Below, in pieces: positions 8,304 to 62,618 of a DNA stretch of 64,000 nt. The translations under genes and the position numbers were made by a program. Under the pieces are notes generated by a model. That model was not told the DNA's origin. It did no database searches and saw only the letters and a list, made by a program, of their open reading frames with translations. Each line of letters opens with the position of its first letter. The first letter of the stretch is position 1. Location of the stretch: contig CAKOLG010000001.1 of NCBI GenBank assembly GCA_934096175.1, forward strand, positions 117,736 through 181,735, written 5' to 3'. The DNA comes from an uncultured Bacilli bacterium (GTDB taxonomy: Bacteria; Bacillota_I; Bacilli_A; RF39; UBA660).

Positions 8304-8315
8304 AAAATCACCATT

Positions 8316-43622: not shown

Positions 43623-44936
43623 ATGGGAAAAGTAAATGTAACAAAAAGAGGGAATCTATATCAATATAGATTTGAAATAGCTCCACAAGGGGGAGTTAGA
43701 AAATTTATTAACAAATCAGGTTTCAAGACAAAACAGGATGCTTATGTTGCTGGGATGAAAGCATTTAATGAATATATGAATACAGGTAAAAAATTTTCTC
43801 CTAATACATGTTCATATTCAGATTTTTTAGATTATTGGATGGCTAATTATTGTCAAATTAATCTAAGATATAATACGATAGAGGCATATAAAAGCATTAT
43901 TAAAAATCATGTTAAACCCAAATTAGGATTTTATAGGCTATCGCAAATAGATACAGCTACATTAAATGATTTTCTTACAGATGTGTTTTTGAATAAAGGA
44001 GTGTCAAAAAACTTTTTAAAAAGTATAATGAAAGTTTTAAAATCTTCATTTGCTTATGCTGAAGATGGTGTTGGATTCATTAAGCATAATCCAGCGTTGA
44101 AAATAAGATTACCAAGATATGATGGTCACGATGAAGATCCAGCTCATATTTTTACACCAGAAGAAATAGAAATGATTTTTAATAGATTTAAAAATAGTCA
44201 TTGTATATATTATGCTTTTTTAACAGCTTATTATACTGGACTGAGAGTTTCAGAAGTATTTGGACTGACATGGGAAGATATTGACTTGAAAAATAAGAAA
44301 TTAACTGTAAATAAAAATATTGTTGAAAAAAATCAAGTAGGTGGAACAAAGCACAGACTTATCAAAGGTCAAAGAACTACTGTTTGGTATTTTGGACCAT
44401 GTAAAACAAAAGCTAGCTATAGAACAATTGATATTGGAGATACATTAGTAGCAGCCTTAAAAGAATTTAAAGAAGAGCAAGAAATATATAAAGAACAATA
44501 TGGGGATTCATATATCAAACATTATGCAAAAGAAGTTTTAAATCAATATACAAATAAACCAGAAACTAAAATAGTTGATTGCAGTGCAGAAATTGATGTT
44601 GCTTTACCTGAAGTACATTTGGTATTTATAAAAAATAATGGGGCATTTGAAGGAAATAATACTTGCAAATATCCATTTAAAGTAATTCACTATGAGTTAG
44701 GAATACCTTGCAGATTTCACGATTTTAGAGATACACACGCAACAAGATTAATTGAAGCAGGAGCAGATATAAAAGCCGTTTCAAAAAGATTAGGACATAG
44801 TACAATTGAAACAACTTATAATATTTATGTAAGAGTTACAATTCAAATGGAAGAAGAAGTAGTTAGTAAATTTGAGGATTATGCAGACTCTTTAGAAATT
44901 ACTATTTCAAGAAAACCTACGGAATCAATTTCGTGA
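43623..44936 (+). CDS. int: tyrosine-type site-specific recombinase/integrase
   Basis: Catalytic domain with R...HDFRDTHATRLIEAGADIKAVSKRLGHSTIETTYNIYVRV (R-H-R-Y residues). N-terminal arm-binding-like domain. First gene of the accessory region. Confidence 0.85.
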   Translation: MGKVNVTKRGNLYQYRFEIAPQGGVRKFINKSGFKTKQDAYVAGMKAFNEYMNTGKKFSPNTCSYSDFLDYWMANYCQINLRYNTIEAYKSIIKNHVKPKLGFYRLSQIDTATLNDFLTDVFLNKGVSKNFLKSIMKVLKSSFAYAEDGVGFIKHNPALKIRLPRYDGHDEDPAHIFTPEEIEMIFNRFKNSHCIYYAFLTAYYTGLRVSEVFGLTWEDIDLKNKKLTVNKNIVEKNQVGGTKHRLIKGQRTTVWYFGPCKTKASYRTIDIGDTLVAALKEFKEEQEIYKEQYGDSYIKHYAKEVLNQYTNKPETKIVDCSAEIDVALPEVHLVFIKNNGAFEGNNTCKYPFKVIHYELGIPCRFHDFRDTHATRLIEAGADIKAVSKRLGHSTIETTYNIYVRVTIQMEEEVVSKFEDYADSLEITISRKPTESIS

Positions 44937-47445: not shown

Positions 47446-47709
47446 ATGAAGTTTTCAAGTGAAAATAGTAAAATCCCTGATTGGATATTGCATCATTTAA
47501 GAAAATATGGCAATTGTTGTTGTGGCAGAGATATAGTCAAGAAAATCGGTAGAGAAAAAATTATAGAAGTTTTGAAACAAGAAGGGTATCCATGTATTCT
47601 TAAAATAATATATGAAAATAAATATAGATATAAGCGAAGAGTAAAATACCCATTAGATGCTTATTATATTTTGGAGATAGAATGTTTGGTAAAAAGTTAT
47701 TATATATGA
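47446..47709 (+). CDS. hypothetical small Cys-rich protein upstream of and overlapping mazF-like gene (possible non-canonical antitoxin)
   Basis: 87 aa. Its 3' end overlaps the toxin start by 4 nt. It contains CCCGRD and is neither a RHH nor an AbrB fold by eye. Confidence 0.35.
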   Translation: MKFSSENSKIPDWILHHLRKYGNCCCGRDIVKKIGREKIIEVLKQEGYPCILKIIYENKYRYKRRVKYPLDAYYILEIECLVKSYYI

Positions 47710-48029
47710 AAAACTTTAAAAAAGGAGATATATTTTTAGCTGAATTAAATGATTCCTACAATCATGTTCAAAACGGAATAAGACCTTGTTTAATTGTTCA
47801 AAACAATCAGGGTAATACTTTTTCGCCAACACTAATTGTTGTACCGTTAACAACAAAAATTAAAAAGACTAATATGCCTGTACATGTTGTGATAACTCCA
47901 TATCAAATGGTTTTGTGTGAATGTATTTTAACTATTTCAAAGAAGCAAATAATTTCTTACATTAAAACATTGGATGAAAAAACTATGAAAAAAGTAGATG
48001 AAGCTTTATCCGTATCATTAGAGATTTAA
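47706..48029 (+). CDS. mazF: MazF/PemK/EndoA-family endoribonuclease toxin
   Basis: KGDIFLAELNDS...GIRPCLIVQNNQGNTFSPTLIVVPLTT...MPVHVVI...MKKVDEALSVSLEI matches B. subtilis EndoA (RPVLVIQNDIGNRFSPTAIV...LPTHVEI...MDKVDEALQISLAL). Confidence 0.75.
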   Translation: MKNFKKGDIFLAELNDSYNHVQNGIRPCLIVQNNQGNTFSPTLIVVPLTTKIKKTNMPVHVVITPYQMVLCECILTISKKQIISYIKTLDEKTMKKVDEALSVSLEI

Positions 48030-50600: not shown

Positions 50601-51671
50601 TTAATTTGTATATAATTTACTTAATATTTTTGTATTTTTAATTTTATAGATCAGGTACAAAGTAATAAATAATATTAATATACATATTGCAATAGATATA
50701 AAATAACTATAGTATATAAAGAAAATTAGATTAACTCCCCATATTAAATTAGCCAATTTAAATAAAATGATAGTTACTATATTATCTATTATAAAAATGG
50801 TATAAGTAAGATAAGTAACAGCTAAAAATACATTCCAAATTATTGACAGATTTGTATAACCAGATAATTTTAGTATAATTATTATTAATATTTTATCATT
50901 AATTAAATCATTTATAAATATGAATAAATTGATTATGAAAAGAAAAATAATTATAAAAATAAATGGTGTTATTATAGATAACAGGCTATTATATTCCTTT
51001 AACTCAGTTTGATAACTATTATCAAAAAGAGTAGCATTGATATTATGGCTTTTAAATATATTTATTAAATCATCAACTTGTTTTTGTTCGCTTACTTTTA
51101 TTAGAAATTCATTTTCACTATTTTGAATGGTTCTAATTATATTATCTGAAATATAAATTTTATTTTGAAGATTAGAATCTCTCTCTTTATAAAAGCCAAC
51201 AATTTTACAAGTTATTTTCTTTTCTTCTATTGATAGAACAATATTAGAATTTAAAATTTCTTTACTTAAATTTTTATATAAAGATTCAGGTATAATAATT
51301 TCATTATTCTTGTTATTAAATTCTTTTCCATTTTGTATACTGATTTCCTCAGTTGGCAAAATCGGAGTGAGCATTATACTTCCTAATTTTTCGTTATATA
51401 TGTTAATGCTTCCTATATAATAGTAAACTTTTTTTATGCCCTTATTTTTTAATATCTCATAAAATTGATCTTCATTTTCTTTGGTACTAAATGATGTATA
51501 AACTATTCTATTTTCAACTCGATTTTGGAGTTTAGGAATCAAATTCTTTGATATTTGAGCATAGGATTGAATAATTACTATTATAGATAAGAACAAACCT
51601 GATAATATAATATATGAAATAATTTGTCTTTTACTTAATTTTATGAATTCTTTTAATAATAGTGAATTCAT
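50601..51671 (-). CDS. ABC transporter permease, FtsX-like
   Basis: N-terminal TM, an extracytoplasmic domain and three C-terminal TM helices. Downstream of the ATPase in the same operon. Confidence 0.6.
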   Translation of the reverse strand: MNSLLLKEFIKLSKRQIISYIILSGLFLSIIVIIQSYAQISKNLIPKLQNRVENRIVYTSFSTKENEDQFYEILKNKGIKKVYYYIGSINIYNEKLGSIMLTPILPTEEISIQNGKEFNNKNNEIIIPESLYKNLSKEILNSNIVLSIEEKKITCKIVGFYKERDSNLQNKIYISDNIIRTIQNSENEFLIKVSEQKQVDDLINIFKSHNINATLFDNSYQTELKEYNSLLSIITPFIFIIIFLFIINLFIFINDLINDKILIIIILKLSGYTNLSIIWNVFLAVTYLTYTIFIIDNIVTIILFKLANLIWGVNLIFFIYYSYFISIAICILILFITLYLIYKIKNTKILSKLYTN

Positions 51672-52889
51672 TTAATTTTTTAGTTCTTCCATAATATTAT
51701 TTTTTTTAAGCTTATTATTAAATATCAGTGATAACAAGACATTTATGATAATGCAGAATGAAATTCCTAGTATTATATTTAATTTTGAAATTGTTAATTT
51801 TAATCCATATAGCATTTCTTCGTTATTCAAATAACAGTTTTGAAAAACAAAAATTAAGAAGAGAGTTATAATTAGTGTTAGAAACAAAGTTACTAATATA
51901 CATAAAAATGATTCAAGGAATTGTAATTTTATAATATCTACTCGATTATACCCAAGTGTTTTTAATATTGCGTATTTTTTATTTCGCTTATATTGATTTT
52001 TTATTGATATTAAGATGATAACTATGATTGAAATAATCCCCACTAGTAAACCTATCGTTGTAATTAAATTCAAAATTTTATTCCCGATTGTGGTATCAAT
52101 TTTTACAACGGGATCTCCATTTGTATAAAAATGATTTTTTTCAAACCTTTTTAAAGTTTCATGAATATCATCTGTGCTTTTAAGTCTAACTACTAGAGGA
52201 TAAATTATTCCTTCTTCTTCTTTAAATGCTTCTGGCTGATAATACAAATTTAAATTTGTTACAATATCTGAATTTGTATAACAAAAATTTTCTTTTCCTT
52301 GTCTCATAGAGGAATCATAAGTTCCAATTAATCTAAAATTTTCTGTTTTAGTATCATCATCAATAAATTTTAAAGAAAATTGCTTTCCTAAAAGATTATT
52401 TAAATTTATTTCTTTTTTTTCTATTTTGTTTTCTTTTTTATATTCATAGAATATATTTTCAGGACATACCATAACTTTATCACTGGAATTATAATTATCA
52501 ATATTTTCCCCATTAGATATTGATATAGTATCTTTTGGTACTCCAAAAAGAAATAAATTGATTTCAGTATCATGATTAAGTCCCTCAAACATTCTCATAT
52601 TTATTATGTAGGAAGTATAAGGAGATATAGATTCAATCGTATTGTATGATTGCAATTCTGCTAATGCTTCTTTTTCTGTTTTCTCATCAGGATCATAATA
52701 TACAAAAAATGTACGATAATCCACCATCTTTTTAACGCTTTGATTCCAATAGTTATTTAAACTGTTGGAAAAAACTAAGCAAAATATTGTGATTGAAACA
52801 GCTATAGAAATAAAAATAATATTAAAATAATTTGCTTTATTTTTGTAAAATTCTTTAATCTCTATTTTTAACATATCAATTAATTTCAT
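51672..52889 (-). CDS. ABC transporter permease, FtsX-like
   Basis: Same architecture as the previous permease. Its stop is adjacent to the next gene's start (ATGA overlap with the ATPase). Confidence 0.6.
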   Translation of the reverse strand: MKLIDMLKIEIKEFYKNKANYFNIIFISIAVSITIFCLVFSNSLNNYWNQSVKKMVDYRTFFVYYDPDEKTEKEALAELQSYNTIESISPYTSYIINMRMFEGLNHDTEINLFLFGVPKDTISISNGENIDNYNSSDKVMVCPENIFYEYKKENKIEKKEINLNNLLGKQFSLKFIDDDTKTENFRLIGTYDSSMRQGKENFCYTNSDIVTNLNLYYQPEAFKEEEGIIYPLVVRLKSTDDIHETLKRFEKNHFYTNGDPVVKIDTTIGNKILNLITTIGLLVGIISIIVIILISIKNQYKRNKKYAILKTLGYNRVDIIKLQFLESFLCILVTLFLTLIITLFLIFVFQNCYLNNEEMLYGLKLTISKLNIILGISFCIIINVLLSLIFNNKLKKNNIMEELKN

Positions 52890-53556
52890 CTATAATCTCC
52901 GTCCTTCCATTTTTTAGGTAAATAATTTCATCAGCATAATCTTTAATGATGTCATCATGACAAATAACGATCACACATTTATCTTGATTTGAGAGTTTTT
53001 TTAATATACTTAAAATTTTAATTGTGTTTTCTTTATCTAAAGAAGCTGTGGGCTCGTCAGCTAATATAATCTCTGGATTATTGCATAGTGCACGAGCAAT
53101 TGCAACTCTTTGTTGTTCTCCACCCGAAAGTTGATTTGGGTAATGCTTATTCCTGTTTTCTATTCCTAATGAATTCAATAAGTTATTGACTCTTTCAACT
53201 TTTTCTTTTTTTGTTAAATTTCTATTAGTATAAAGTGGTAAAATTACATTTTCTGTGACATTCATTGTTGGAATCAAATTAAAAGATTGAAATATATATG
53301 CTAATTTCGTTTTTCTAAGATTAGCTATATTTTTTTCTGATAATTTTGATGTATTATGTCCGTCTATTTTTAATGTTCCGCTTGTTGGTTCTATAAGAAG
53401 CCCAATTATTTGCATTAATGTAGATTTTCCACTTCCAGATTCACCCATAATTCCATACAATTTTCCTTCTTCAAACTTAATATTAATATCATCTAAAGCG
53501 TTTATGCATTTATTTTTAAATGAATATTTTTTTTGTACATTAATTAACTCTATCAC
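52876..53556 (-). CDS. ABC transporter ATP-binding protein (MacB/LolD/antimicrobial-peptide exporter type)
   Basis: Walker A GESGSGKST, signature LSGGEQQRVAIARAL and Walker B ILADEPT. Confidence 0.85.
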   Translation of the reverse strand: MIELINVQKKYSFKNKCINALDDINIKFEEGKLYGIMGESGSGKSTLMQIIGLLIEPTSGTLKIDGHNTSKLSEKNIANLRKTKLAYIFQSFNLIPTMNVTENVILPLYTNRNLTKKEKVERVNNLLNSLGIENRNKHYPNQLSGGEQQRVAIARALCNNPEIILADEPTASLDKENTIKILSILKKLSNQDKCVIVICHDDIIKDYADEIIYLKNGRTEIIDEIN

Positions 53557-53578
53557 TATTTACCTTCTTTCTTTTTAC

Positions 53579-53992
53579 TTAGTTTTGAGTCATAATTACA
53601 CTATTTGATTTAATTCCACAAAATTGTCTTCCACCTGTATAATTTGTAGAGAAACCATATGCATATCGTCCATTTTTAAATTTTCCCATATTAGCTCTAA
53701 CGCATCGGTATAATTCTGTACTCATCATTTTACCAGATACTTGAGTGGTTGGACTGTAGTGTAATGTAACCCATAAAAGTTTTTCTCTATTAGATGTGCA
53801 ATCTGTATGAGCGTCCATAGAAATATCTATGATAAAATTTTTTGTGTCAAACCATCTATAGGAACCGATATGATTTGAATTAGCTGGCATATTTAATGTT
53901 GATTTATATTCAGCAGCAGAAACTTTTGTTGCCCCAAAAAGAGATAAAACAGCTATTCCAAAAACAAATAACGGCATTAATAATTTTTTCAT
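53579..53992 (-). CDS. secreted ~110-aa protein with 4 Cys, first gene of ABC exporter operon (bacteriocin-like candidate)
   Basis: Sec signal peptide MKKLLMPLFVFGIAVLSLFGATKVSA/AE. The mature domain is Cys-containing and beta-rich. The operon structure matches lactococcin-972-type loci. Confidence 0.45.
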   Translation of the reverse strand: MKKLLMPLFVFGIAVLSLFGATKVSAAEYKSTLNMPANSNHIGSYRWFDTKNFIIDISMDAHTDCTSNREKLLWVTLHYSPTTQVSGKMMSTELYRCVRANMGKFKNGRYAYGFSTNYTGGRQFCGIKSNSVIMTQN

Positions 53993-54129
53993 TCTTTCAC
54001 CTCCTACTATATTATATTTATCATTATGAAAAAAAAGTAATGTAAAAGCACGAATAAATGATAATTTTTATGATATAATAAAATAGATAAATTTATTTAC
54101 TTAAATTATATGTGGAAGGTGACAATTTA

Positions 54130-54690
54130 ATGGTAAAAAAATATATATTAATTGTTTTTTTGTTTTTAATTTTATTTTTATCTGGGTGTAGTAAAAAAGA
54201 AACGGGCTATTCTTATCATCCTACATATATAGACTCTAATAATGGCCAGCGTTGGTTGAACTATGCAATTTTGTATGAAAATACTTATACGGGGGTTAAA
54301 GATGGCTCATTAAGCATTTTAAAACAAGGAGAACAAACTGAGGAATATCAATTGTTTTTTTCAATAGATTCATTGTATTATAAAAAAGGAGATATTATAT
54401 TGGGGACTTCAAATTATATATACATCTTTAATCAAGATCAAGAAAAAAATTTTAGAATTATAGGATTTAAATTATCTTCTGAAAAAGAAACACCTGTAAT
54501 AATAGATAATAAAAAAATAAAATCTATTGTTAATGTCCATGGTGCTAACAAAGAAAATATATATGTAAGTTATTTTGATGATAAGAATGAAAGATATCTT
54601 AAAATAAGTGCAGATTTAAGTAAAATATATGAATTAGATAGTTTAGAAAGTGTAGAAGAACAAATGGAATATACTATTTTAAAAAAATAA
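54130..54690 (+). CDS. lipoprotein (hypothetical)
   Basis: Lipobox LFLSGCSKKE. ATG 54130 after GGAAGGTGA. Confidence 0.55.
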   Translation: MVKKYILIVFLFLILFLSGCSKKETGYSYHPTYIDSNNGQRWLNYAILYENTYTGVKDGSLSILKQGEQTEEYQLFFSIDSLYYKKGDIILGTSNYIYIFNQDQEKNFRIIGFKLSSEKETPVIIDNKKIKSIVNVHGANKENIYVSYFDDKNERYLKISADLSKIYELDSLESVEEQMEYTILKK

Positions 54691-54774: not shown

Positions 54775-54830
54775 ATAGTTTATTTTAATTTATTTATGTA
54801 TTCGGATGTAGAAATGGAGGAATGTTAATT

Positions 54831-55307
54831 ATGAAAAAAGTAGTATTTATAATTTTGTGTATGGCAGTTTTTATGCCGTTTGCAGTTGAAGCTAAGACTT
54901 GTGAGTATGGGATGCCATCACCACCAATATACTATAATGGAAATTGGGCTTATGGACAAGTAATAAATTTTAAGACGTCAGCATCATCATGTCTAGCTGA
55001 TAATATGTATGTTTATTTTAGTAATGGTAATTATTTATCCACTTTTAATTTTACCATAGAGGCTTATTTAATGGAAAAAGATAAAGATCCTAATCCAGAT
55101 GATAAAGCTAAACTATATTTTGGTTACAATTCAGGTTATAGTTTAATGAACTGGACTTTACAACAAAAATTTGATGGTAATTTAGATAGTGCTGGAGATC
55201 AAACTTGTGAGTTGTATATGAAATTTAGATTAAAAGAGCCGTTAGCACATAATAATTTTGAATACCTTGACAGCGATATGTTTAGATATACAATATGCAT
55301 GGATTAA
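54831..55307 (+). CDS. secreted Cys-containing protein, paralog A of a novel family
   Basis: Signal peptide MKKVVFIILCMAVFMPFAVEA. It shares KTCEYG / TSASSC / VYFSNG / YLME / GDQTCELYM blocks with the ORF at 63514. Confidence 0.6.
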   Translation: MKKVVFIILCMAVFMPFAVEAKTCEYGMPSPPIYYNGNWAYGQVINFKTSASSCLADNMYVYFSNGNYLSTFNFTIEAYLMEKDKDPNPDDKAKLYFGYNSGYSLMNWTLQQKFDGNLDSAGDQTCELYMKFRLKEPLAHNNFEYLDSDMFRYTICMD

Positions 55308-55789
55308 AAAAAACTCGAAAAATTTGGATACTATTATCAATTTTATTTTTGATAATAGTATCATCATTAATTGTTTTATTCAAAAAACCAATAAATAAAA
55401 TGGAAAGTAATAACTTGGATACAAATGAAAAATTTAATAAAAAGGAACAAAAAATAGTAGATGCAGCTTATAAAAAAATTGATAGTTCAGATTATTTTGA
55501 CCATTCTAATTTAAAAAAAATTGAACTAGAGAGCTTGCAATTATATGGATATTATAAATCTCAAAGCAATATTCTTTATATAAGGGTTAATTATAATTCA
55601 GAATGTAAAGATGGTACTTATAGTTGTGATAATCTTGCTAAAGATAAATCTTATAGCTTATCAAATAATATTCCATTTTATTTTTTTATTAAAGTAGATA
55701 CAAATAATTATAATCATTTAGAGATAGTTGATGGAATATCAGCCAATATAAATTCTGATTGGATATCAGATTCTAGTAAAATAGAGTAA
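55295..55789 (+). CDS. membrane-anchored hypothetical protein
   Basis: N-terminal TM (IWILLSILFLIIVSSLIVL). It overlaps the preceding gene's end. Confidence 0.45.
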   Translation: MHGLKKTRKIWILLSILFLIIVSSLIVLFKKPINKMESNNLDTNEKFNKKEQKIVDAAYKKIDSSDYFDHSNLKKIELESLQLYGYYKSQSNILYIRVNYNSECKDGTYSCDNLAKDKSYSLSNNIPFYFFIKVDTNNYNHLEIVDGISANINSDWISDSSKIE

Positions 55790-55965: not shown

Positions 55966-56169
55966 ACCTAATATTTATTTTATATGTCCGGACTATAAAT
56001 AAAATATGGTATTTATATCTATTGTGTTCAATTGTCAATCATTTTATTTGATATTATGATTGAAACGGACTTGAATACGGTATTTTAAATCTTTCTATAT
56101 ATTAGATAAAAAATTTAATATTTAAGCAATTTTTTAATATTCTAACAAAAGCAGCAACAGGAGATCCAT

Positions 56170-56385
56170 ATGTATACAATGTACGAACCTACAGGGAATA
56201 TAATAGGTTATATTCAACCTCATGATTTCTATGTTAGATATCTGGTTAGTAGCCCTAGTATGGATAATGTTCATAGAGTTGTGTTTAATGATGGTAAAGA
56301 TGTTAAAATAGGTTATATAAGAGAACAGTATGTTTTACCTAGTATGACTTTAAATCCTACTGATGATGAAGCAGTAAAAGCATAA
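56170..56385 (+). CDS. hypothetical small protein
   Basis: 71-aa ORF downstream of element copy 1. No signal peptide. Confidence 0.35.
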   Translation: MYTMYEPTGNIIGYIQPHDFYVRYLVSSPSMDNVHRVVFNDGKDVKIGYIREQYVLPSMTLNPTDDEAVKA

Positions 56386-56388
56386 ATA

Positions 56389-56724
56389 TTGGTAGGTTAT
56401 GAACCATTCACTTGTGTAGAATATGATCAAGCTTCTGATGAATATATACTGCATAAATGGAAAGATACACCATCAAGAGAAATCTATATTAATAAACTAG
56501 TCCCTTATTTTAATGCCCAATGGTCTTATGTAGGGATGCTTAATAAAGGTGATTATATAAAAATAAATAGAGGTAATTTTATTAATCCAGGGTACACAAG
56601 ACCATGGACAAATCGTATAGATGGAATTAAGAAAAAAGGTAGTATTTCATTTACTAGTTTTTCTGGTTATGCAATTATTGGAATTGAGTACGCTAGTCAA
56701 GGATATGAAAGAGCTTGGTATTAG
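56389..56724 (+). CDS. hypothetical protein
   Basis: 111-aa ORF, 3 nt after the previous gene. Aromatic-rich, with no signal peptide. Confidence 0.4.
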   Translation: MVGYEPFTCVEYDQASDEYILHKWKDTPSREIYINKLVPYFNAQWSYVGMLNKGDYIKINRGNFINPGYTRPWTNRIDGIKKKGSISFTSFSGYAIIGIEYASQGYERAWY

Positions 56725-56785
56725 AAAACTATCATTAGATATTATCAAGTATAATATAATATGATATAATAGTTTTGGTGATTAA

Positions 56786-57007
56786 GCTGAAAATATAATT
56801 ATACTTTTACTTTTGATATTATGTGTATGTGGATGTGAAAATAACAATCAATATACAGATTTTAAACATTATGATTTAAGGAATTATGATATTACTAATA
56901 AATATTCCTATGTAGATGATGATTATATATATTATAATGGAAGTACTAGTATTTCTAGTTCAATTGAAGTTGTCAAATGTTCTAGAAATAGTTATAAATG
57001 TCAATAA
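56786..57007 (+). pseudogene. small lipoprotein-like ORF lacking an AUG/GUG start (remnant or non-canonical ATA/ATT/TTG initiation)
   Basis: The in-frame sequence AENIIILLLLILCVCGCENNNQ looks like a signal peptide plus lipobox, but no Met lies between the upstream stop (56783-56785) and the lipobox. A GGTGA RBS sits 13 nt upstream of ATA 56795. Confidence 0.25.
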
Positions 57008-57090
57008 TAAAATACCAAACTAAAACTATTATCATGATTAATAAAGAAAATGCTTGATATGCATTTTCTTTATTTTATTTATAGGCGAGG

Positions 57091-57849
57091 ATGGTGATTA
57101 AAATTAAACTTGTAACTAAAATATTTAAAAGAAATGATTGGTATGTAACTTCACCTTTTGGAAGTAGAAATCCAATTAAAACTAAAAAAGGTATAACCAC
57201 CAGCTTTCATAATGGATGCGATTATGGAACTAATGGAGAAAAGTGGGGACAATATGCTTTAGAAAATGGCAAAATTTTATCTTGTGGAATCGCTTCTGAT
57301 GGAGCTAAATATATATGGGTAAATTATCCAAGAATCAATAAAAAAATTTTGCACTACCATTTAGATAGTATTTGTGTAAAAACGGGGCAAGAAGTTCATG
57401 AGGGATTATTACTTGGCTATACAGGTTCAACTGGTATGGCTACAGGAATTCATTTACATTTAGGAATGAAAAATAGTAATGGTGGAGACTATGAAGATCC
57501 ACATAATTATGATTACCAGTTAAATAACATTAATCATTCTGAGACATCTAAAATGGATTTAATAAAAATTGCTTATGAAGTAATTGCAGGGAAATATGGT
57601 AATGGAAAGACTAGAATTGATAAACTTACTAATATGGGATATAATGCAAGTGATGTTCAAAAGATAGTAAATGAAATAAAAAATAAAGAGCTAAAACGGA
57701 CAAATTTTTACATAGTAAAAAAAGATGATACTCTAATAAAAATAGCTAAAAAATTTGGAACAACATGGGAAAAATTATATGAATTAAATAGAGACATTAT
57801 AGGTAATGATCCTGATTTAATTAAAATAGGTCAAATATTGAAATACTAG
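57091..57849 (+). CDS. M23 (LytM) peptidase with C-terminal LysM domain, no signal peptide (endolysin-like)
   Basis: HNGCDYG...GYTGSTGMATGIHLHLGM (HxxxD/HxH zinc site) and LysM YIVKKDDTLIKIAKKFGTTWEKLYELN. The N-terminus is not a signal peptide. Confidence 0.7.
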   Translation: MVIKIKLVTKIFKRNDWYVTSPFGSRNPIKTKKGITTSFHNGCDYGTNGEKWGQYALENGKILSCGIASDGAKYIWVNYPRINKKILHYHLDSICVKTGQEVHEGLLLGYTGSTGMATGIHLHLGMKNSNGGDYEDPHNYDYQLNNINHSETSKMDLIKIAYEVIAGKYGNGKTRIDKLTNMGYNASDVQKIVNEIKNKELKRTNFYIVKKDDTLIKIAKKFGTTWEKLYELNRDIIGNDPDLIKIGQILKY

Positions 57850-57865
57850 TAAAAAAAATTTATAA

Positions 57866-57927
57866 TTACGGTAATTTATTCGGTGTTAATTAGTATATAA
57901 TTTTTTATATTGATTAACACCTTTTTT
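57866..57927 (+). repeat. conserved inverted-repeat/terminator-like element, copy 2 (TACGGTAATTTATTCGGTGTTAATTAGTATATA...TTGATTAACACC-TTTTTT)
   Basis: The 9-bp arms GGTGTTAAT / ATTAACACC with a T6 tail. It sits 55 bp upstream of the holin gene. Confidence 0.55.
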
Positions 57928-57982
57928 ATATTTGTTAAAGAGTAGATGTTTTAAGTCAATTTTATAAAGAGAGGGGAAGAAA

Positions 57983-58417
57983 ATGAAACAAGTTCTTGAT
58001 AAAATAATTAGTTTTTTGTTATATTTTTTGCTTTTTCTATTTGGAAGTTTTGATTTTATGTTAAAAACTTTATTGTCTTTAATGTTTATAGATTATATAA
58101 CAGGTGTAAGTAGAGCATTTATTACAAAAAAGGTTAATAGCAGTATAGGAGGTAAAGGAATTATAAAAAAAGCAGTATACTTATGTGTTGTTGCAGTAGC
58201 AGTAATATTAGACAATTTATTGGAAGTAAACGGAGGTTTAAGAGCTTTAATTATATATTCATTTATTTTTAACGAAATGTTATCAATTTTAGAAAATAGT
58301 AGTGCTATGGGAATCAAAGTTCCTAATATTTTATATAAATCACTTGAAAAATTAAATAAAGATCAAAATGAAAATGATAAAGAAATAGTAAAAAGTGAAG
58401 AATCAAAGCATAAATAA
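57983..58417 (+). CDS. TcdE/UviB-family holin (toxin-secretion/phage-lysis holin, Phage_holin_4_1-like)
   Basis: Three TM helices, MFIDYITGV and the central TKKVNSSIGGKGIIKKAVY. Compare C. difficile TcdE SRKFNSSFGIDGGIRKVAM. Charged C-terminal tail. Confidence 0.7.
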   Translation: MKQVLDKIISFLLYFLLFLFGSFDFMLKTLLSLMFIDYITGVSRAFITKKVNSSIGGKGIIKKAVYLCVVAVAVILDNLLEVNGGLRALIIYSFIFNEMLSILENSSAMGIKVPNILYKSLEKLNKDQNENDKEIVKSEESKHK

Positions 58418-58833
58418 TGTTGCTAATACTTTAGCAGTGTATAAAAAAGTCGAATTTTATTGTATAATATCTATGATAGCAAGGCAAAAATGCCAAGTAT
58501 TTATATTAAGAAATGTGATGGTGAAATAATAATAAAAAGAAACTAGTTAAGTAGTAAGAAGTAAAAAGTAGTATAATACACTTTCTATTCTTACTGTAGA
58601 TACTAGTTTATATATGCAAAAAAATTGTGTAGTATTTATTTTTTGCTTTATATGAATTGCTTTTATGGAGCGATTATTATGGAACTAGAAAAGTATTATA
58701 CATATTTTTTAGTAAGAAAAGATAGTATATTAAATCATAAAAAGACTATATTCTTTGCTCTAAAGGCTAATAAGAAATATAGTCTTTTTCAATTTATAAA
58801 AATACTTTTTCTTAGGGCAAGAAGTCCTCCCGT

Positions 58834-58869
58834 TCCTATCAATTTAATAAAAAATTTAAATTGATAGGA
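58834..58869 (+). promoter_or_regulatory. RBS-occluding hairpin TCCTATCAATTTAA-taaaaaa-TTAAATTGATAGGA upstream of sigma-like regulator gene
   Basis: Perfect 14-bp inverted repeat. The 3' arm includes GATAGGAGG, part of the SD sequence for the ATG at 58880. Confidence 0.5.
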
Positions 58870-58879
58870 GGAAGAAATT

Positions 58880-59356
58880 ATGGGTAAGTTCCCAAAAAGA
58901 AGAAAAAGTAAGGATAATCCGTATACACTTGGATTTGATGAAATAAAAAAGACTTATACTATTTCATTTAAAGATGTGAATAACATTATTCAAGTGATTG
59001 AAATAAATGAATTGTTATATAAAGAGTTCAATAAGTTTGAATTAGAAGATTTATCTGAAATGAATGAATATGATAATCATATTGAGCACTCAGAACTTTA
59101 TGAAGAAACTTTATATAAAAGATCTTTTAATAAAGATATATCAATAGAAGACAATATTGAAACTAAATTAATGGTAGAACTATTAAACATTTTTATAGAA
59201 GAATTACCAACTATACAAAAAAATAGATTAAAAAAGTATTATATAGAACACAAAACATATGAAAAAATAGCAATAGAAGAAGGATGCACAAAAAGAGCAG
59301 TAAAATTTAGTATAGATATTGCAATTCAAAAATTATCAAAAAAATTTAAAAATTAG
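58880..59356 (+). CDS. sigma-70 region-4-like HTH regulator (possible TcdR/UviA- or RinA-like activator)
   Basis: C-terminal LPTIQKNRLKKYYIEHKTYEKIAIEEGCTKRAVKFSIDIAIQKL resembles ECF/sigma region 4. A basic N-terminus. 158 aa. Confidence 0.5.
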   Translation: MGKFPKRRKSKDNPYTLGFDEIKKTYTISFKDVNNIIQVIEINELLYKEFNKFELEDLSEMNEYDNHIEHSELYEETLYKRSFNKDISIEDNIETKLMVELLNIFIEELPTIQKNRLKKYYIEHKTYEKIAIEEGCTKRAVKFSIDIAIQKLSKKFKN

Positions 59357-59477
59357 ACTACACAAAACATATTTAAGTTAGGAAACAAGTGAAAGGGATA
59401 TAATACTCTTTCACTTGCTATCCAAAAATTTTATAAGCTAATTTTAAAAGATTTAGTGTTTAATAGTCAAAATCATA

Positions 59478-59663
59478 ATGAAAAAATTTACAGTAGAAAT
59501 AAATCAACTAAAATCACTTTCTTTTGAAGTAAATGCAAAAAACAAAAAAAGTGCAAGACAAATGATTACCGATTTTATCAATAAAGTAGATTTAAACAAT
59601 TTGAATTTAAATTGCTTAAAAAAAGAAAATGTTAAAGTGGTTGTAAATAGGTTAAGAAAATAA
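59478..59663 (+). CDS. hypothetical small basic protein
   Basis: 61-aa ORF with a GGA-less weak RBS. Low confidence. Confidence 0.3.
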   Translation: MKKFTVEINQLKSLSFEVNAKNKKSARQMITDFINKVDLNNLNLNCLKKENVKVVVNRLRK

Positions 59664-59681
59664 AAGAACGGAGATGAAAAA

Positions 59682-60017
59682 ATGGCATATGTAAAAAGAG
59701 TACCACCAATTAAGTTAATTCTTACAAAGAAAGAATATAACACTCTTATAGGTATTTTAACAAAAAATGTGGATGAAAATAATGATGCAACAGCTAGAGA
59801 ATTATCAATTAATACTAAAGAAAAATTATTAAAATATAGTATACCACATGAATTAAATGAGAACGATGTAGAGATTGATGTAAGATTATATTTAAATGAG
59901 GCAGCAGATATTATAACTGAGTTATTATTATATAATGTAAAAAGAATTAACGAGATAAATTATTATGAAGTTTTGATAAAAGTTAGAGAATCATTTGTAA
60001 ATCATACTGACGATTAA
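59682..60017 (+). CDS. hypothetical protein
   Basis: 111-aa ORF after GGAGATGAAAAAATGG-type RBS (AACGGAGATG). Confidence 0.4.
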   Translation: MAYVKRVPPIKLILTKKEYNTLIGILTKNVDENNDATARELSINTKEKLLKYSIPHELNENDVEIDVRLYLNEAADIITELLLYNVKRINEINYYEVLIKVRESFVNHTDD

Positions 60018-60116
60018 ATTAGTATTAAATCTTTTAAAAATGTAATTAAAAATTTGGAAAGCTTAGATGTACTAAAAATTTGCATTAAAAATTTAATATT
60101 TAAGGAGATGAAAAAA

Positions 60117-62540
60117 ATGGCAAATAATGAAGTAGTAGGAGATCCATATGTATTTTATACACAAAAATGGTTAAATGATACTTATGGAAATGACAGTAGA
60201 TTTAATACTGTTACAGAAAATGGTAAAACAGGATGGGCTACCATTTATGCTTTAACAAGAGCATTACAAATTGAATTAGGAATTCAATCAACAGCTGATA
60301 ATTTTGGAAATGGAACACAAAAAGCATTTAAAACTCAATATCCTAATGGTGTACAGCAACAATCATCAGATGATAAAACAAAGAAGAACATTTATGGAAT
60401 CATCCAAGGAGCACTATTATGCAAAGGATATGCAATAGGTGCTAACACACCTACCTGTAATTTTTACGGAGGAACAGGTGGCGCAATAAAGAAATTAAAA
60501 GCAGATGCAGGATTAACAGATACAAGTTCGACAGTAACATTGAATATAATGAAAGCATTATTATCAATGGATTATTTTTATTCTTATGATACATCAACAA
60601 GAACTCAAAATATTATTAGTATGCAAAGATATCTAAATAGAAATTATGAAGCATATATTGGAATTAGACCTTGTGATGGAGTATATTCTCGTAGAACAAG
60701 TCAAGCATTGATATATGCAATTCAGGCAGAAGAGTGTATGCCTACTTCAGTAGCTAATGGTAACTGTGGACCATCTACAAAGCGTTGTCTACCAACATTA
60801 TCAGTAACTGGATCATCATCAGGAACTAGTTATAAGGGACAAGCATATTCAACTGCTAGTTTAAATAAATTTAAAACTTTAGCAAATATAGCATTATATT
60901 TTAATGGATTTGGTTCAGGAGAATTAACATCTAATTTAGACGAAAATACTATAACAAGTTTTCAAACTAAGTACTCTATTTTAGCGACTGGGAAAATAGA
61001 TTATACAACATGGTTATCTCTATTAATTAGCTGTGGAGATACAGATAGAAGTGCTAGTGCATGTGATTGTGCTACTATTTTAACACCAGCAAAAGCAAAA
61101 ACTTTGTATGATAATGGTTATCTTCGAGTTGGAAGATACTTATCTGGATATATTGCAAGTGGAGCAAGTAAAGCATTAACAAAAAAAGAATTGCAAATTG
61201 CTGCTGACGCAGGATTATATATTTTCCCAATTCATCAATCAAGTGCTAACAAGGTTTCATATTTTACAACTGCAAATGCAGTAAAAGATGTAGACAGTGC
61301 TTTTGAACATGCAAATGCACTAGGTATGCCTAGTGATACTAGTATTTATTTTGCAGTCGATTGTGATCCTTTAGATACAGAAATAACCTCTAATATTATT
61401 CCATATTTTACAACAATAAATAATATAATGAAAAGTAAGTATAATAATAAATACCCTGTTAGTATATATGGAACAAGAAATGTTTGTACGAGAGTTAGTA
61501 ATAAAGGCTTAGCAAAATACAGTTTTGTTAGTGATATGTCAACAGGATTTAGTGGAAATTTAGGATTTCCTATTCCAGATAATTGGGCATTTGACCAATT
61601 TGCAACCGTTACTGTTGGATCTGGAGATGGTAAGATTGAAATTGATAAAGATGCAATGTCTGGTAGGGATCTTGGATTAATAGGTGATTTATATTTAAAG
61701 GATTATGGGAAGGTATATTATAATTTAGTTGATATGTATAATTTAGCATTAGATTATACTAATAACAATGAAGAAAAAAGTAATTTATTAGTTTTACAAT
61801 ATCTCAGAAAGGGACGCTATGGTGATACATCTATTTTTTGTGGTGATTCATTATCGGGAGATGCCTCAATTATTAAGTGGGAAATTGTAGCTGGTACTAT
61901 AGACAAAGGATATTGTAATTTAGTAGACAGCAAATTATATAATTTGAATTTTGATTTTGTGGATTCATCTGTAAATCCTACTACATCACATGATTTACCA
62001 CACTTGGCAGCTACTCTAAATTCGTTGCTATACCAAATTGGAAATGATGATTTAAGAGGTTTCGATGAATTAGTTGATTGTTACTCTGGATGGGCAGGAG
62101 ATACAATTTCGTATGCAGATTCAATTCAAAAAGCCGTGAAAGATGGATTAACTACTGATTATGTTAAATGGGCGAAAGATAATATTTGTACCCCAAACGA
62201 AGCACATTTTAACCTTCAAGATTATATTGATGATATTGATGCATATAATTTATACCATATGATTAAATTTAAAGGGTATACTCTGCCAGAAGCGTTTTAC
62301 TTTTATTATGTTTTATCATCATTAGAAACTCATAAATATGAGTATGAGAAAAGAGCAAGCAGATTTTTAAATTATATGTCAACATCTCATTTCATTGATC
62401 TTTGTGAGTTAATAAATTCTGATGAAACTCCTATAAAACAGTTAAAGAGAACATTAAGTAAAGCTGAACAAAAATATATTGATGCAGCAATAGATGCATT
62501 TAAATCATTTATATTCAAGGAATATGTAGAAGGAAGATAA
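60117..62540 (+). CDS. large modular cell-wall hydrolase-like protein: 3x peptidoglycan-binding (PG_binding_1-like) repeats + DUF1906/GH25-like TIM-barrel + ~290-aa uncharacterised C-terminal domain, no signal peptide
   Basis: PG-binding repeats (GWATIYALTRALQIELGI; IIQGALLCKGYAIG; SMQRYLNRNYEAYIGIRPCDGVYSRRTSQALIYAIQ). DUF1906-like block LRVGRYLSGY...ELQIAADAGLYIFPIHQ...IYFAVDCDP...VSIYGTRNVC. ATG 60117 sits 9 nt after AGGAG. The N-terminus MANNEVVGDPY is not a signal peptide. Confidence 0.65.
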   Translation: MANNEVVGDPYVFYTQKWLNDTYGNDSRFNTVTENGKTGWATIYALTRALQIELGIQSTADNFGNGTQKAFKTQYPNGVQQQSSDDKTKKNIYGIIQGALLCKGYAIGANTPTCNFYGGTGGAIKKLKADAGLTDTSSTVTLNIMKALLSMDYFYSYDTSTRTQNIISMQRYLNRNYEAYIGIRPCDGVYSRRTSQALIYAIQAEECMPTSVANGNCGPSTKRCLPTLSVTGSSSGTSYKGQAYSTASLNKFKTLANIALYFNGFGSGELTSNLDENTITSFQTKYSILATGKIDYTTWLSLLISCGDTDRSASACDCATILTPAKAKTLYDNGYLRVGRYLSGYIASGASKALTKKELQIAADAGLYIFPIHQSSANKVSYFTTANAVKDVDSAFEHANALGMPSDTSIYFAVDCDPLDTEITSNIIPYFTTINNIMKSKYNNKYPVSIYGTRNVCTRVSNKGLAKYSFVSDMSTGFSGNLGFPIPDNWAFDQFATVTVGSGDGKIEIDKDAMSGRDLGLIGDLYLKDYGKVYYNLVDMYNLALDYTNNNEEKSNLLVLQYLRKGRYGDTSIFCGDSLSGDASIIKWEIVAGTIDKGYCNLVDSKLYNLNFDFVDSSVNPTTSHDLPHLAATLNSLLYQIGNDDLRGFDELVDCYSGWAGDTISYADSIQKAVKDGLTTDYVKWAKDNICTPNEAHFNLQDYIDDIDAYNLYHMIKFKGYTLPEAFYFYYVLSSLETHKYEYEKRASRFLNYMSTSHFIDLCELINSDETPIKQLKRTLSKAEQKYIDAAIDAFKSFIFKEYVEGR

Positions 62541-62618
62541 AATATAACTAAGGATAGTTAATTGATTAAATTAATCAATTAACTATTTTTTATGGTATAA
62601 TATTAGTGGTGAGCAATT

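Follow-up and report, generated by a model that had tools for sequence, protein, structure and literature searches.

Type VII ABC systems work in the extracytoplasmic space, and among them are systems that protect bacteria from their own bacteriocins and toxins (PMC5985334). YknWXYZ (acting against SDP), AS-48EFGH, and the BceAB-type systems shield the producer or the target cell from an envelope-active peptide, acting outside the membrane, and FtsX-family systems are established activators of extracellular hydrolases of the M23/LytM, CHAP, and NlpC/P60 types (PMC5985334). In the loci for lactococcin 972 (Lcn972) and streptococcin B (scbABC), which are accessory and patchily distributed, the membrane protein(s) and ABC ATPase are thought to serve in immunity or export (PMC11796350). 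Bac41 of Enterococcus faecalis (bacL1-bacL2-holin-bacA-bacI) is an experimentally established bacteriocin locus with its own holin (PMC11808071).

The operon described here recalls the Lcn972 and scbABC loci in its layout. It lies in a 64,000-nucleotide stretch of DNA from an uncultured Bacilli bacterium, hereafter the window, and encodes on the minus strand a small secreted protein (SP), an ABC ATPase, and two permeases (P1 and P2), with a terminator-like hairpin at its end (Table 1). As in those loci, the first gene of a short operon specifies a Sec-secreted, unmodified protein predicted to be rich in β-structure; genes for membrane protein(s) and a MacB-clade ATPase follow, and the locus is accessory and patchy. 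In contrast to Lcn972, SP is unrelated by sequence or profile, is nearly twice the size, and has another predicted fold; the ATPase gene is second in order, two 4-TM FtsX-type permeases stand in place of a single large DUF1430/TIGR01654 protein, and the ATPase scores under the TIGR03608 cut-off.

Table 1. Features of the SP operon and the surrounding island (window coordinates)
Feature	Position	Strand	Remarks
Tyrosine integrase	43623-44936	plus	Left island edge, right after chromosomal secA
Terminator-like hairpin and T-run	50580-50557	minus	21 nt past P2 stop
Permease P2 gene	51671-50601	minus	356 aa
Permease P1 gene	52889-51672	minus	405 aa
ABC ATPase gene	53556-52876	minus	226 aa; start codon GTG
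SP gene	53992-53579	minus	137-aa precursor
Shine-Dalgarno AGGAGGTG	54005-53998	minus	5 nt 5' of SP ATG; read from sequence
Lipoprotein gene, lipobox LSGC	54112-54690	plus	Divergent from SP operon; context
17-nt island motif TTTCTAWATATTARATA	56092-56108	plus	Only exact copy in window
M23/CW_7/LysM peptidase, no signal peptide	57091-57849	plus	Context
Phage_holin_4_1 holin	57983-58417	plus	Context
Sigma-region-4-like regulator	58880-59356	plus	Context
828-aa BacA homologue (PG_binding_1 and Rv2525c-like glycoside hydrolase domains)	60054-62540	plus	
Two-TM membrane protein	62619-63293	plus	Downstream of BacA-like gene; context

Operon Structure and the ABC System

The original prediction, made from the DNA letters and their reading frames, had placed a secreted protein, an ATPase, and two permeases in this order on the minus strand, with overlapping or adjacent stop and start codons. 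The reading frames and their junctions bear this out: a gap of 22 nt separates the SP and ATPase genes, the ATPase and P1 genes overlap by 14 nt, and the P1 stop directly abuts the P2 start (TAAATG). All four genes are real and are under purifying selection, with dN/dS values among orthologues of 0.07 (SP), 0.11 (ATPase), 0.21 (P1), and 0.30 (P2). The operon holds no modification genes, and the open reading frame list and Pfam models reveal neither a two-component system nor an adaptor (MFP) gene adjoining it. Of the relatives, only the closest, L007 and L008 (80% identity), keep the divergent lipoprotein gene beside the operon, and it is thus not a demonstrable part of the module.

The ATPase matches ABC_tran (9.7e-38) and retains intact Walker A (GESGSGKST), signature (LSGGEQQR), and Walker B (ILADEPT) motifs. 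Among models and solved structures, it is best matched by MJ0796, MacB, YtrE, BceA, and LolD, and, judged by such matches, it is a member of the MacB/LolD/FtsE clade. Subfamily models do not discriminate further: DarD (225.4 bits), TIGR03608 (213.9), FtsE (206.5), and LolD (203.6) give about equal scores, each below its model's cut-off (254.85 bits for TIGR03608, 264.85 for FtsE, and 307.75 for LolD). Assignment to the TIGR03608 (L_ocin_972_ABC) subfamily was rejected at a shortfall of 41 bits.

P1 matches FtsX (7.2e-10; 39.4 bits, cut-off 25.5 bits), solved MacB chains (5e-5), and, weakly, MacB_PCD (1e-5; 26.3 bits, just under the 27-bit cut-off). A first transmembrane segment at residues 19–44 leads into an extracytoplasmic domain of ~225 aa, and TM2–4 make up the FtsX domain. 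P2 has the same topology, TM1 being followed by a large extracytoplasmic domain and then by TM2–4, and a weak match to FtsX (E 0.089); it is a divergent P1 paralogue, detected in relatives at E 5e-5 to 3e-4, and is probably the other half of a heterodimeric permease with P1. Four transmembrane segments, an extracytoplasmic domain between the first two, and a C-terminal FtsX domain are the features of type VII (MacB/FtsX-fold) permeases, and the clade and intact motifs of the ATPase are those of the nucleotide-binding subunit. The MacB-type ATPase and two FtsX-like permeases that had been predicted are thus confirmed by model matches, topology, and the paralogy of P1 and P2.

One ATPase gene with two paralogous 4-TM FtsX-type permease genes is the arrangement of LolCDE, and it implies a heteromeric type VII transporter. 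LolCDE, however, is a Gram-negative housekeeping lipoprotein extractor, whereas the present operon resides on a mobile island in a low-GC Bacilli-class host, and its ATPase falls below the LolD cut-off. FtsEX, with its partners EnvC, PcsB, CwlO, and RipC, offers another likeness, in that an FtsX-family ABC system and peptidoglycan hydrolases (M23, CHAP, or others) are linked genetically; but the window locus is not the chromosomal division locus, its FtsE score is below the cut-off, P1 has the weak MacB_PCD match, and SP is devoid of the coiled-coil used by known FtsX partners. A housekeeping FtsEX or LolCDE identity was considered and rejected, both on the two ATPase scores and because an integrase/MazF island houses the operon, which related islands lack or retain only in decayed form. 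Like YknWXYZ, AS-48EFGH, and the BceAB-type systems, it combines a MacB-clade ATPase with MacB/FtsX-fold permeases whose extracytoplasmic domain is large. Those systems use one kind of permease (a homodimer or the 10-TM BceB) rather than two paralogues, often include an adaptor protein or two-component system, and have peptides as their cognate toxins, whereas SP is predicted to be a folded 12-kDa jelly-roll.

SP and the Lactococcin 972 Family

SP begins with a typical Sec signal peptide (residues 1–26), composed of MKK, a hydrophobic core, and a cleavage site between VSA and AEY. The mature protein of 111 aa is cationic (pI 9.4) and contains three cysteines (65, 97, and 125) rather than the four originally counted. 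Neither its sequence nor its AlphaFold model contains a coiled-coil, membrane anchor, or lipobox. The model (pLDDT 87.9) is an 11-strand jelly-roll of ~110 aa, for which Foldseek returns generic β-sandwich or jelly-roll neighbors, carbohydrate- or receptor-binding modules, at TM <= 0.5; model searches and Foldseek found no likeness to a known bacteriocin in sequence or fold.

Pfam, NCBIfam, PHROGs, and PADLOC models give no match to SP (Pfam and NCBIfam at E <= 1), and source-named copies are all labelled "hypothetical protein." A profile search of 1.84 billion representative proteins yielded ~24 clusters; by this measure SP is the founding member of a rare, previously unannotated family of predicted secreted proteins. 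Precursors in the family alignment span 134–150 aa, and the mature proteins, of ~110 aa, are mostly cationic (pI > 8.4 in 22 of 26 members). The conserved motifs x-Y-x-S-T-L, G-x-x-R-x-Y, G...Y-x-F-S-T, and Y-x-G-x-x-S-N-x-V-x-M are all found in the window's SP. Cys65 and Cys125 are both present in 10 of 10 members and both absent in 16 of 16, a pattern of joint presence and absence implying a disulfide in one subclade. The exact sequence of the window's SP occurs on 123 contigs; relatives are present in Hadza and other gut metagenomes, and the hosts are uncultured rumen and human-gut Bacilli.

The original prediction linked the operon to lactococcin 972 through its architecture and through a TGGRQ stretch in SP. 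The architectural claim stands: on an accessory element, a small Sec-secreted protein has its gene in one operon with those of a MacB/FtsX-type ABC system, and SP shares with the Lcn972 family a predicted Sec-dependent secretion and an operon free of modification genes. The proposed kinship does not. SP matches neither PF09683 nor TIGR01653, the Lactococcin_972 model matches none of the 26 family members, and hhalign of the family profile with the Lcn972 precursor (verified as 2LGN) gives a probability of 1.4%. TGGRQ is indeed present, at residues 119–123, but it is kept only by the closest relatives and falls in a variable, indel-rich, non-conserved loop of the family alignment. Neither P1 nor P2 matches DUF1430/TIGR01654 at E <= 1. 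The suggested comparison of folds fared no better, as 2LGN is absent among the 50 Foldseek PDB matches listed, which are generic jelly-rolls. An Lcn972-like size and fold was likewise rejected, the mature proteins having 111 and 66 aa, and 11 strands in SP comparing with a small two-sheet β-sandwich in Lcn972.

That SP nonetheless truly belongs to the family, as a diverged lipid-II-binding bacteriocin accompanied by its cognate immunity and ABC genes, is scarcely credible. The operon logic is alike, with a Sec-secreted β-rich protein, membrane protein(s), and an ABC ATPase (PMC11796350); TIGR03608 ranks second among the ATPase models, and TGGRQ recalls the NNTGRQGK of Lcn972. Set against these are the failed profile matches of SP and its 26-member family, the hhalign result, the differences in length and strand number, the position of TGGRQ in an unconserved loop, the permeases without a DUF1430/TIGR01654 match, and the ATPase score 41 bits under the TIGR03608 cut-off. 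Membership is largely refuted. Two outcomes had been named as telling against it, a lack of Lcn972 similarity and an ABC system of housekeeping type; the first is what we find, but by profile the ABC system is not a housekeeping FtsEX or LolCDE.

Genetic Linkage and the Bacteriolysin Island

The set of SP, ATPase, P1, and P2 is found in every relative with enough flanking DNA, at SP identities from 95% down to ~25–30%, with the exceptions of L006 and L021. L001, L002, L007, L009, L015–L018, L020, and L022 carry the full set; in L005 and L013, where contig ends cut the locus, SP and then the ATPase are visible. The linkage is reciprocal, for the loci with an intact P1 that were retrieved by the P1 profile (L020 and L022) both carry SP. 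All four components co-diverge among relatives, two SP paralogues flank the ABC genes in L009, and the distribution of the module is rare and patchy (~24 small-protein clusters). In L021, SP and the ATPase have been deleted and P1 and P2 pseudogenised, whereas the regulator, holin, M23 lysin, and BacA-like genes next to them remain intact. The ABC genes thus appear to be retained only where SP is present, and tolerance of the island's lysins does not require them. L006 has an intact SP gene but has lost the ABC system, perhaps recently; the 5' remnant of its ATPase gene is now joined to an ArsC-like reading frame. The small sample of loci included no orphan immunity-only locus.

These patterns bear on the idea that the ABC system serves in resistance or sensing, as a module of BceAB-, YknXYZ-, or MacB-like type directed against an external envelope-active antimicrobial, with SP as a secreted accessory factor. 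The YxdLM transporter of B. subtilis, encoded with the small secreted protein YxeA, is a precedent for pairing a secreted protein with an FtsX-type resistance transporter. The ATPase and P1 belong to the MacB/BceA/YtrE/LolD clade, and SP shows no toxin-like feature by Foldseek. Yet strict reciprocal linkage, and decay of the ABC genes upon loss of SP, would be unexpected for a general resistance pump; the module sits on a bacteriolysin island and not in a stress regulon, and a two-component system or MFP gene is missing beside it. Neither SP nor any family member matches the DUF1093 (YxeA) model, and SP matches no other. We find this explanation decidedly improbable.

The operon is part of an integrase/MazF element whose 828-aa protein shares 43% identity with BacA across 526 aa and whose holin is 32% identical to that of Bac41. 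By these resemblances the island is related to the Enterococcus Bac41 bacteriolysin locus, and it carries several predicted antibacterial cassettes. Both encode a BacA-like protein, a holin, a small regulator, and a lysin that has no signal peptide, and in both the BacA-like gene is followed by one for a membrane protein. Bac41, however, is without SP and the ABC genes; its lysin is BacL1, whereas that of the window is an M23/CW_7/LysM protein, and the window's sigma-region-4-like regulator has no similarity to BacL2.

Cell-wall hydrolases recur near SP. In L015–L018, the genes for SP, ATPase, P1, P2, an M23/LysM peptidase, and a holin form an uninterrupted same-strand string with gaps <= 37 nt; L003 and L004 encode a CHAP hydrolase just ahead of SP; the window's M23 lysin and holin genes lie 3 kb from the operon. 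In L015, L017, and L018 the 17-nt island motif stands ahead of the SP operon and again ahead of the BacA-like gene, and it is also found 5' of the SP operon in L002–L004. The window's copy precedes small ORFs leading into the M23 lysin gene, and the motif is absent at the window's own SP operon.

Because the operon of L015–L018 runs into peptidase and holin genes, a role in hydrolase control fits it equally well. SP would then be no toxin but an extracytoplasmic partner or adaptor of a heteromeric FtsX-type ABC system that controls or localizes the island's cell-wall hydrolases by mechanotransmission, an FtsEX-EnvC/PcsB/CwlO-like device on a mobile element that might, for example, time lysis or lysin release. 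The gene strings, the nearby CHAP and M23 genes, the motif common to the SP operon and the BacA-like gene in relatives, and the established activation of extracellular hydrolases by FtsX-family systems (PMC5985334) all favor this role, as does the dN/dS of SP (0.07, versus 0.21–0.30 for the permeases), a stronger constraint, more in keeping with a structural partner than with a toxin in an arms race. Nevertheless, SP lacks any coiled-coil, membrane anchor, or lipobox by which a monoderm cell could keep it beside the ABC system, and the lysin, holin, and BacA-like genes of L021 are intact despite decay of the module. The adjoining hydrolase varies between lineages or is missing, as in L009 and L020, and P1 matches MacB_PCD, if weakly (26.3 bits, cut-off 27), and scores far under the FtsE/FtsX equivalog cut-offs. 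On balance we regard hydrolase control as unlikely; it is quite doubtful that SP is an extracellular adaptor by which ATP hydrolysis switches holin-exported hydrolases (M23, CHAP, and BacA-like) on and off.

A Candidate Antibacterial Protein with Proposed ABC Self-Protection

The explanation we tentatively favor, at a little short of an even chance, is that SP is a new Sec-secreted antibacterial protein with type VII ABC self-immunity, an analogue of Lcn972 from outside that family. Following export by Sec and cleavage behind VSA, SP would act on the envelope of competing Gram-positive cells. In the producer, the ATPase, presumably working as a dimer, would drive movement of the extracytoplasmic domains of P1 and P2, presumably a LolC/LolE-like heterodimer, and so dislodge SP from its envelope target. 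Such a dislodging mode has been proposed for SDP (YknXYZ), AS-48 (AS-48EFGH), and bacitracin and lantibiotics (BceAB-type), and presumably applies to Lcn972. The ~12-kDa predicted jelly-roll forms an obligate genetic module with its dedicated type VII ABC system, and this module would be one among several antibacterial cassettes on the island; in relatives it has a promoter-proximal motif in common with the hydrolase genes there.

Several features of the locus sit well with a bacteriocin. SP is small and cationic, bears a Sec signal, and is encoded at the head of a tight operon with a MacB-clade ATPase and two FtsX-type permeases; strict reciprocal linkage, co-divergence, purifying selection, the L009 paralogues, and the joint decay in L021 point the same way. 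So do the rare and patchy occurrence, the integrase/MazF island with its BacA-like hydrolase, and the motif common to the SP operon and BacA-like gene. Others sit less easily. By model searches and Foldseek, SP is unlike any known bacteriocin in sequence or fold; its survival in L006 is hard to square with a self-toxic protein whose sole immunity is the ABC system lost there; the small sample of loci yielded no immunity genes standing alone; and the window's operon has no island motif.

Were SP an adaptor, an FtsEX-like hydrolase controller would travel with the bacteriolysin island and set the producer's lysin release or survival, and SP would represent a new partner class for type VII ABC systems. 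Even if SP is no toxin, the pairing of a soluble, predicted jelly-roll with a two-permease FtsX-type system would offer a tractable model for type VII ABC systems in monoderms. If SP is antibacterial, it would define a new class of Sec-secreted protein bacteriocins with heteromeric type VII ABC immunity, belonging to abundant uncultured Bacilli of the rumen and human gut, and Bac41-type bacteriolysin islands would be widespread outside the enterococci, with several weapon cassettes under one regulator.

The SP operon and the protein family it encodes

The gene for the small secreted protein SP heads a minus-strand operon of four consecutive ORFs, followed by genes for an ABC ATPase and for two paralogous FtsX/MacB-type permeases, P1 and P2 (see table); this is the gene order of the original prediction. 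The overlapping or adjacent junctions that it described are also present: a gap of 22 nt separates SP from the ATPase gene, the ATPase and P1 genes overlap by 14 nt, and the start of P2 abuts the stop of P1. A ribosome-binding site read in the sequence, AGGAGGTG, precedes the SP ATG at 5 nt. A scan for sigma-70-type promoters upstream of SP gave nothing above shuffled expectation in this AT-rich DNA. Orthologue comparisons yield dN/dS ratios of 0.07 for SP, 0.11 for the ATPase, 0.21 for P1 and 0.30 for P2, values that identify all four ORFs as real, constrained genes.

Coordinates of the SP operon, of other features of the island and window, and of features in related loci (positions prefixed by a locus handle refer to that locus)
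Feature	Position	Strand	Basis or remark
Operon, four ORFs	53992-50601	minus
SP gene, 137 aa	53992-53579	minus	ORF
ABC ATPase, 226 aa, GTG start	53556-52876	minus	ORF; ABC_tran
Permease P1, 405 aa	52889-51672	minus	ORF; FtsX
Permease P2, 356 aa	51671-50601	minus	ORF; FtsX weak, P1 paralogue
Terminator-like hairpin	50580-50557	minus	sequence
SRP RNA	8306-8400	minus
OLE RNA	34662-35146	plus	RF01071, 233.5 bits
174-aa ORF	35164-35688		directly after OLE RNA
L31 leader	35764-35794
Integrase	43623-44936		start of island
MazF/PemK toxin, 115 aa, with preceding 87-aa ORF	47446-48029	plus	the two overlap
CAP/SCP protein, 346 aa	49387-50427	plus	2e-6, 29.1 bits, above cut-off
161-aa and 164-aa proteins	54822-55789	plus	overlapping genes; no family matches
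Bac41-like cassette	56092-63293
BacA-like gene, 828 aa	60054-62540
Motif TTTCTAWATATTARATA	56092-56108		one exact copy
Motif TTTCTAWATATTARATA	L002 241-257
Motif TTTCTAWATATTARATA	L015 1042-1058, 4960-4976
ATPase-ArsC-like fusion	L006 3893-4225		in frame
SP family member P0008 and preceding genes	L011 829-5832
BacA-like protein, 745 aa	L019 9971-12208		45% identity
Decayed ABC genes	L021 5980-7773

SP was expected to be a secreted protein of about 110 residues, and it is: its signal peptide is of the usual type, with MKK, a hydrophobic core and cleavage between VSA and AEY, and leaves a mature protein of 111 aa with a pI of 9.4. Its cysteines number three (65, 97 and 125) rather than the four first reported. 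None of the models of Pfam, NCBIfam, PHROGs and PADLOC matched SP, even at permissive thresholds; no near-identical DNA and no tblastn match was found in phage and plasmid collections, nor was SP found in IMG/VR. Among 1.84 billion representative proteins, a profile search returned 28 matches in all, 24 of them small (134-150 aa), full-length and secreted. The large Ig_7 or FG-GAP repeat proteins P0013, P0015, P0025 and P0027 match over a piece of 25-40 residues only and were judged spurious. The exact SP sequence of the window occurs in 123 public contigs, and a contig scan with a four-sequence SP alignment found two metagenome-assembled genomes; named copies are all called “hypothetical protein” by their sources. 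On sequence comparison, SP founds an unannotated family of secreted proteins.

The family alignment displays a motif x-Y-x-S-T-L directly after the cleavage site, followed by G-x-x-R-x-Y, G...Y-x-F-S-T and a C-terminal Y-x-G-x-x-S-N-x-V-x-M, and the pI exceeds 8.4 in 22 of 26 members. Cys65 and Cys125 are both present in 10 of the 26 sequences and both absent in 16, a pattern that implies a putative disulfide in one SP subclade, as expected for an extracellular protein. AlphaFold modeling from four sequences was unusable (pLDDT 46); the 26-sequence alignment was needed for a confident model, which is all-beta with 11 strands (pLDDT 87.9). Its Foldseek neighbors in the PDB and BFVD are generic jelly-roll modules at TM ≤ 0.5, such as the C-terminal domain of Clostridium perfringens enterotoxin, carbohydrate-binding modules, PP2 lectin, PirA and Ena. 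Searched against PDB sequences, the family profile found only the Hemolysin II C-terminal domain, at a nonsignificant E of 0.12.

The predicted combination of an ABC ATPase with two FtsX-like permeases is confirmed. The ATPase matches ABC_tran (9.7e-38) with intact Walker A, signature and Walker B motifs, and P1 matches FtsX (7.2e-10) as well as solved MacB chains, falling slightly below the 27-bit cut-off for MacB_PCD (1e-5, 26.3 bits). The FtsX match of P2 is weak (E 0.089), but P2 has the topology of P1, TM1, a large extracytoplasmic domain and TM2-4, and its paralogy to P1 is detectable in relatives. The ATPase scores 213.9 bits on TIGR03608 (cut-off 254.85), no better than on DarD, FtsE or LolD, and the ABC system does not profile as a housekeeping transporter of the FtsEX or LolCDE type, the identity that the original prediction had set against its own. 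Assignment of the locus to a defense system was rejected, PADLOC having given generic ATPase cross-matches only.

Relation to lactococcin 972

The locus had been put forward as a candidate relative of lactococcin 972 (Lcn972). Profile searches do not bear this out: neither Pfam nor NCBIfam connects SP to Lactococcin_972, and the 26 aligned family members have no convincing Pfam match, to that family or any other. Alignment of the SP family profile by hhalign with the Lcn972 precursor, whose sequence was verified against PDB 2LGN, gave a probability of 1.4% over 13 columns, and 2LGN is absent among the 50 Foldseek matches listed for the SP model. Models of Lcn972-type immunity proteins match neither P1 nor P2. 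The TGGRQ stretch noted as reminiscent of Lcn972 is indeed present, but it falls where the family alignment is richest in indels, and only the closest relatives keep it. With profile, hhalign, fold and partner models all failing to support it, true membership in the Lcn972 family is very improbable, and homology was rejected. Lcn972-like loci are described as a bacteriocin gene accompanied by genes for immunity and transport whose roles are predicted and in no case verified by experiment (PMC11796350); SP and its ABC genes are proposed to work alike, without homology.

A mosaic island with a Bac41-like cassette

The part of the window left of 43.4 kb is chromosomal; mnmG, argS, a murA-like gene, a PBP gene and secA are among the genes scanned there. 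The OLE (Ornate Large Extremophilic) RNA in this part appears to have a rumen or gut Bacilli-class bacterium as its host. From the integrase to the window end extends a mosaic island, for which a tRNA integration site was rejected because the window has no tRNA genes. The island holds genes for a replication-initiator-like protein, a MazF toxin, a cold-shock protein, two small sigma-region-4-like regulators, a CAP-domain protein and several small secreted or anchored proteins, in addition to the SP operon. MazF/PemK probably has its antitoxin in the preceding 87-aa ORF, and the related L009 island likewise carries a PemK gene close to its integrase. The N-terminally anchored CAP/SCP protein, with its CAP/SCP domain at the C terminus and marginal Ig-like matches, adjoins the operon in L007 too (58% identity) and, in part, in L021 (75% over 111 aa, where the locus ends). 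The L007 island, otherwise collinear, lacks the genes for a Cys-rich secreted 161-aa protein and an N-terminally anchored 164-aa protein; in L008 a copy of the former has 35% identity. The pair may be another small cassette.

The island further encodes an M23/CW_7/LysM peptidase, a Phage_holin_4_1 holin and a protein of 828 aa in which PG_binding_1 and Rv2525c-like hydrolase domains are combined; neither the peptidase nor the 828-aa protein has a signal peptide. Full-length or N-terminal homologs of the latter occur on 565 plasmids, 384 of them enterococcal. Its counterpart on Enterococcus faecalis p1207_2 (43% over 526 aa) is the 726-aa gene product of the Bac41 locus, where its neighbors are bacL2, a gene for a BacL1-type hydrolase, a phage holin gene (32% identity to the window holin) and, downstream, genes for membrane proteins. 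Experiments have established Bac41 as a bacteriolysin system with joint action of BacL1 and BacA and with immunity genes downstream (PMC11808071). The window cassette shares the BacA homolog and holin with Bac41 but lies outside Enterococcus; it also holds a sigma-region-4-like regulator (58880-59356) and, downstream of the BacA-like gene, a two-TM protein that may be an immunity factor for the BacA-like protein. By eye only, this two-TM protein resembles the one encoded downstream of the BacA homolog in L009; BLASTP gave no match. In L019, an IMG/VR phage contig of higher GC, a BacA-like gene lies between replication genes (D5 primase, SNF2 helicase) and a small terminase, so that the BacA-like hydrolase family is also phage-borne.

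A motif of 17 nt, TTTCTAWATATTARATA, was found ahead of several genes at a distance of 25-45 nt: it precedes the SP start in L002-L004, L006 and L015-L018, and in L015, L017 and L018 also the BacA-like gene. The window copy stands before ORFs leading to the M23 lysin, and none lies upstream of the window's own SP operon, where the sequence differs and is common to L007, with a divergent lipoprotein gene inserted. The motif evidence for co-regulation thus comes from the relatives and not from the window copy. The motif is a candidate promoter element for the sigma-like regulator of the island. A role of the lipoprotein as a conserved immunity component is not supported, since it is conserved in the closest relatives only; against L015 neighbors it gave E 0.15 and 2e-4, the latter from the signal peptide only.

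Co-inheritance and possible function

The set of SP, ATPase, ~405-aa permease and ~355-aa permease recurs throughout the range of SP identity: 95% in L001 and L007 (rumen MAG “Bacilli bacterium”), 77% in L020 (human gut), 65% in L002, 42% in L005 (ATPase seen before the contig end), 33% in L009, 31% in L015-L018 (human gut, Hadza included) and 25% in L013 (ATPase seen). The four genes are also present in L022. In a reverse scan seeded with the P1 alignment alone, both loci with intact P1, L020 and L022, have SP upstream. A P1 homolog directly follows SP in L011 and L012. In L011 the SP family member P0008 comes directly after genes for DUF5305, glycine-rich secreted, camelysin/TasA-like and signal-peptidase-like membrane proteins, and mature N-termini of these neighbors (ALSQTLTINGS, ALNTELSISGT) resemble the family start x-S-T-L-x-I/L-x-x-G-S, a likeness that may reflect shared processing or a fiber-type strand.

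Type-VII (MacB/FtsX-fold) ABC systems do not transport substrates across the membrane; ATP hydrolysis moves their extracytoplasmic domains and so does work outside the cell (PMC5985334). Documented roles include protection from endogenous toxins or bacteriocins (YknXYZ/SDP, AS-48EFGH, BceAB-type); in addition, the heteromeric LolCDE extracts lipoproteins, and FtsEX activates hydrolases (PMC5985334). For SP and its ABC genes we can only infer a function. Our preferred reading, held tentatively, is that SP would be secreted via Sec as an antibacterial protein and that ATPase2-P1-P2 would be a dedicated machine for self-protection against it. Several features point this way: a small cationic secreted protein is the first gene product; the two-permease ABC system is strictly co-inherited and co-diverging with it; the location is a mobile island of antibacterial cell-wall enzymes; SP is duplicated in one lineage, L009, where the ABC genes have one SP paralog on either side; and the ABC genes decay after SP loss. 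Two further readings are less probable than either antibacterial action or control of hydrolases: that the ABC genes form a general resistance module to which the secreted protein is an accessory, and that SP is a member of the Lcn972 family.

Control of hydrolases is the main rival, though an unlikely one: SP would act outside the cell as the partner by which the ABC system governs the hydrolases of the island. The BacA-like gene, M23 lysin, holin and sigma-like regulator accompany SP and its ABC genes in L009, L015-L018, L021 and L022; in L015-L018 the gene string continues directly into the M23 and holin genes, and a CHAP gene adjoins SP in L003 and L004. The strong constraint on SP also fits such a role, whereas SP lacks any tether or coiled-coil. 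L021 argues against it as well: there SP, the ATPase and the P1 N-terminus are lost and the P1/P2 remainders are interrupted by several stops, with the adjoining BacA-like gene, M23 lysin, holin and sigma-like regulator all intact. The same locus disfavors the ABC system as immunity to the island's own lysins. The main observation that fits the simple toxin-immunity model badly is L006, a deletion variant of the L015-type island. The first ~60 ATPase codons are joined there in frame to an ArsC-like C-terminus, and neither the permeases nor the M23 lysin nor the holin are left; the BacA-like gene is reduced to a remnant, but the SP gene is intact together with the motif preceding it.

Pairings of a secreted protein with its own type-VII ABC system are of a known kind; the SP family itself is undescribed. 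Its secreted proteins are locked to a presumably heteromeric FtsX-type ABC system and are encoded, in uncultured Bacilli of rumen and gut, within a bacteriolysin island related to Bac41.
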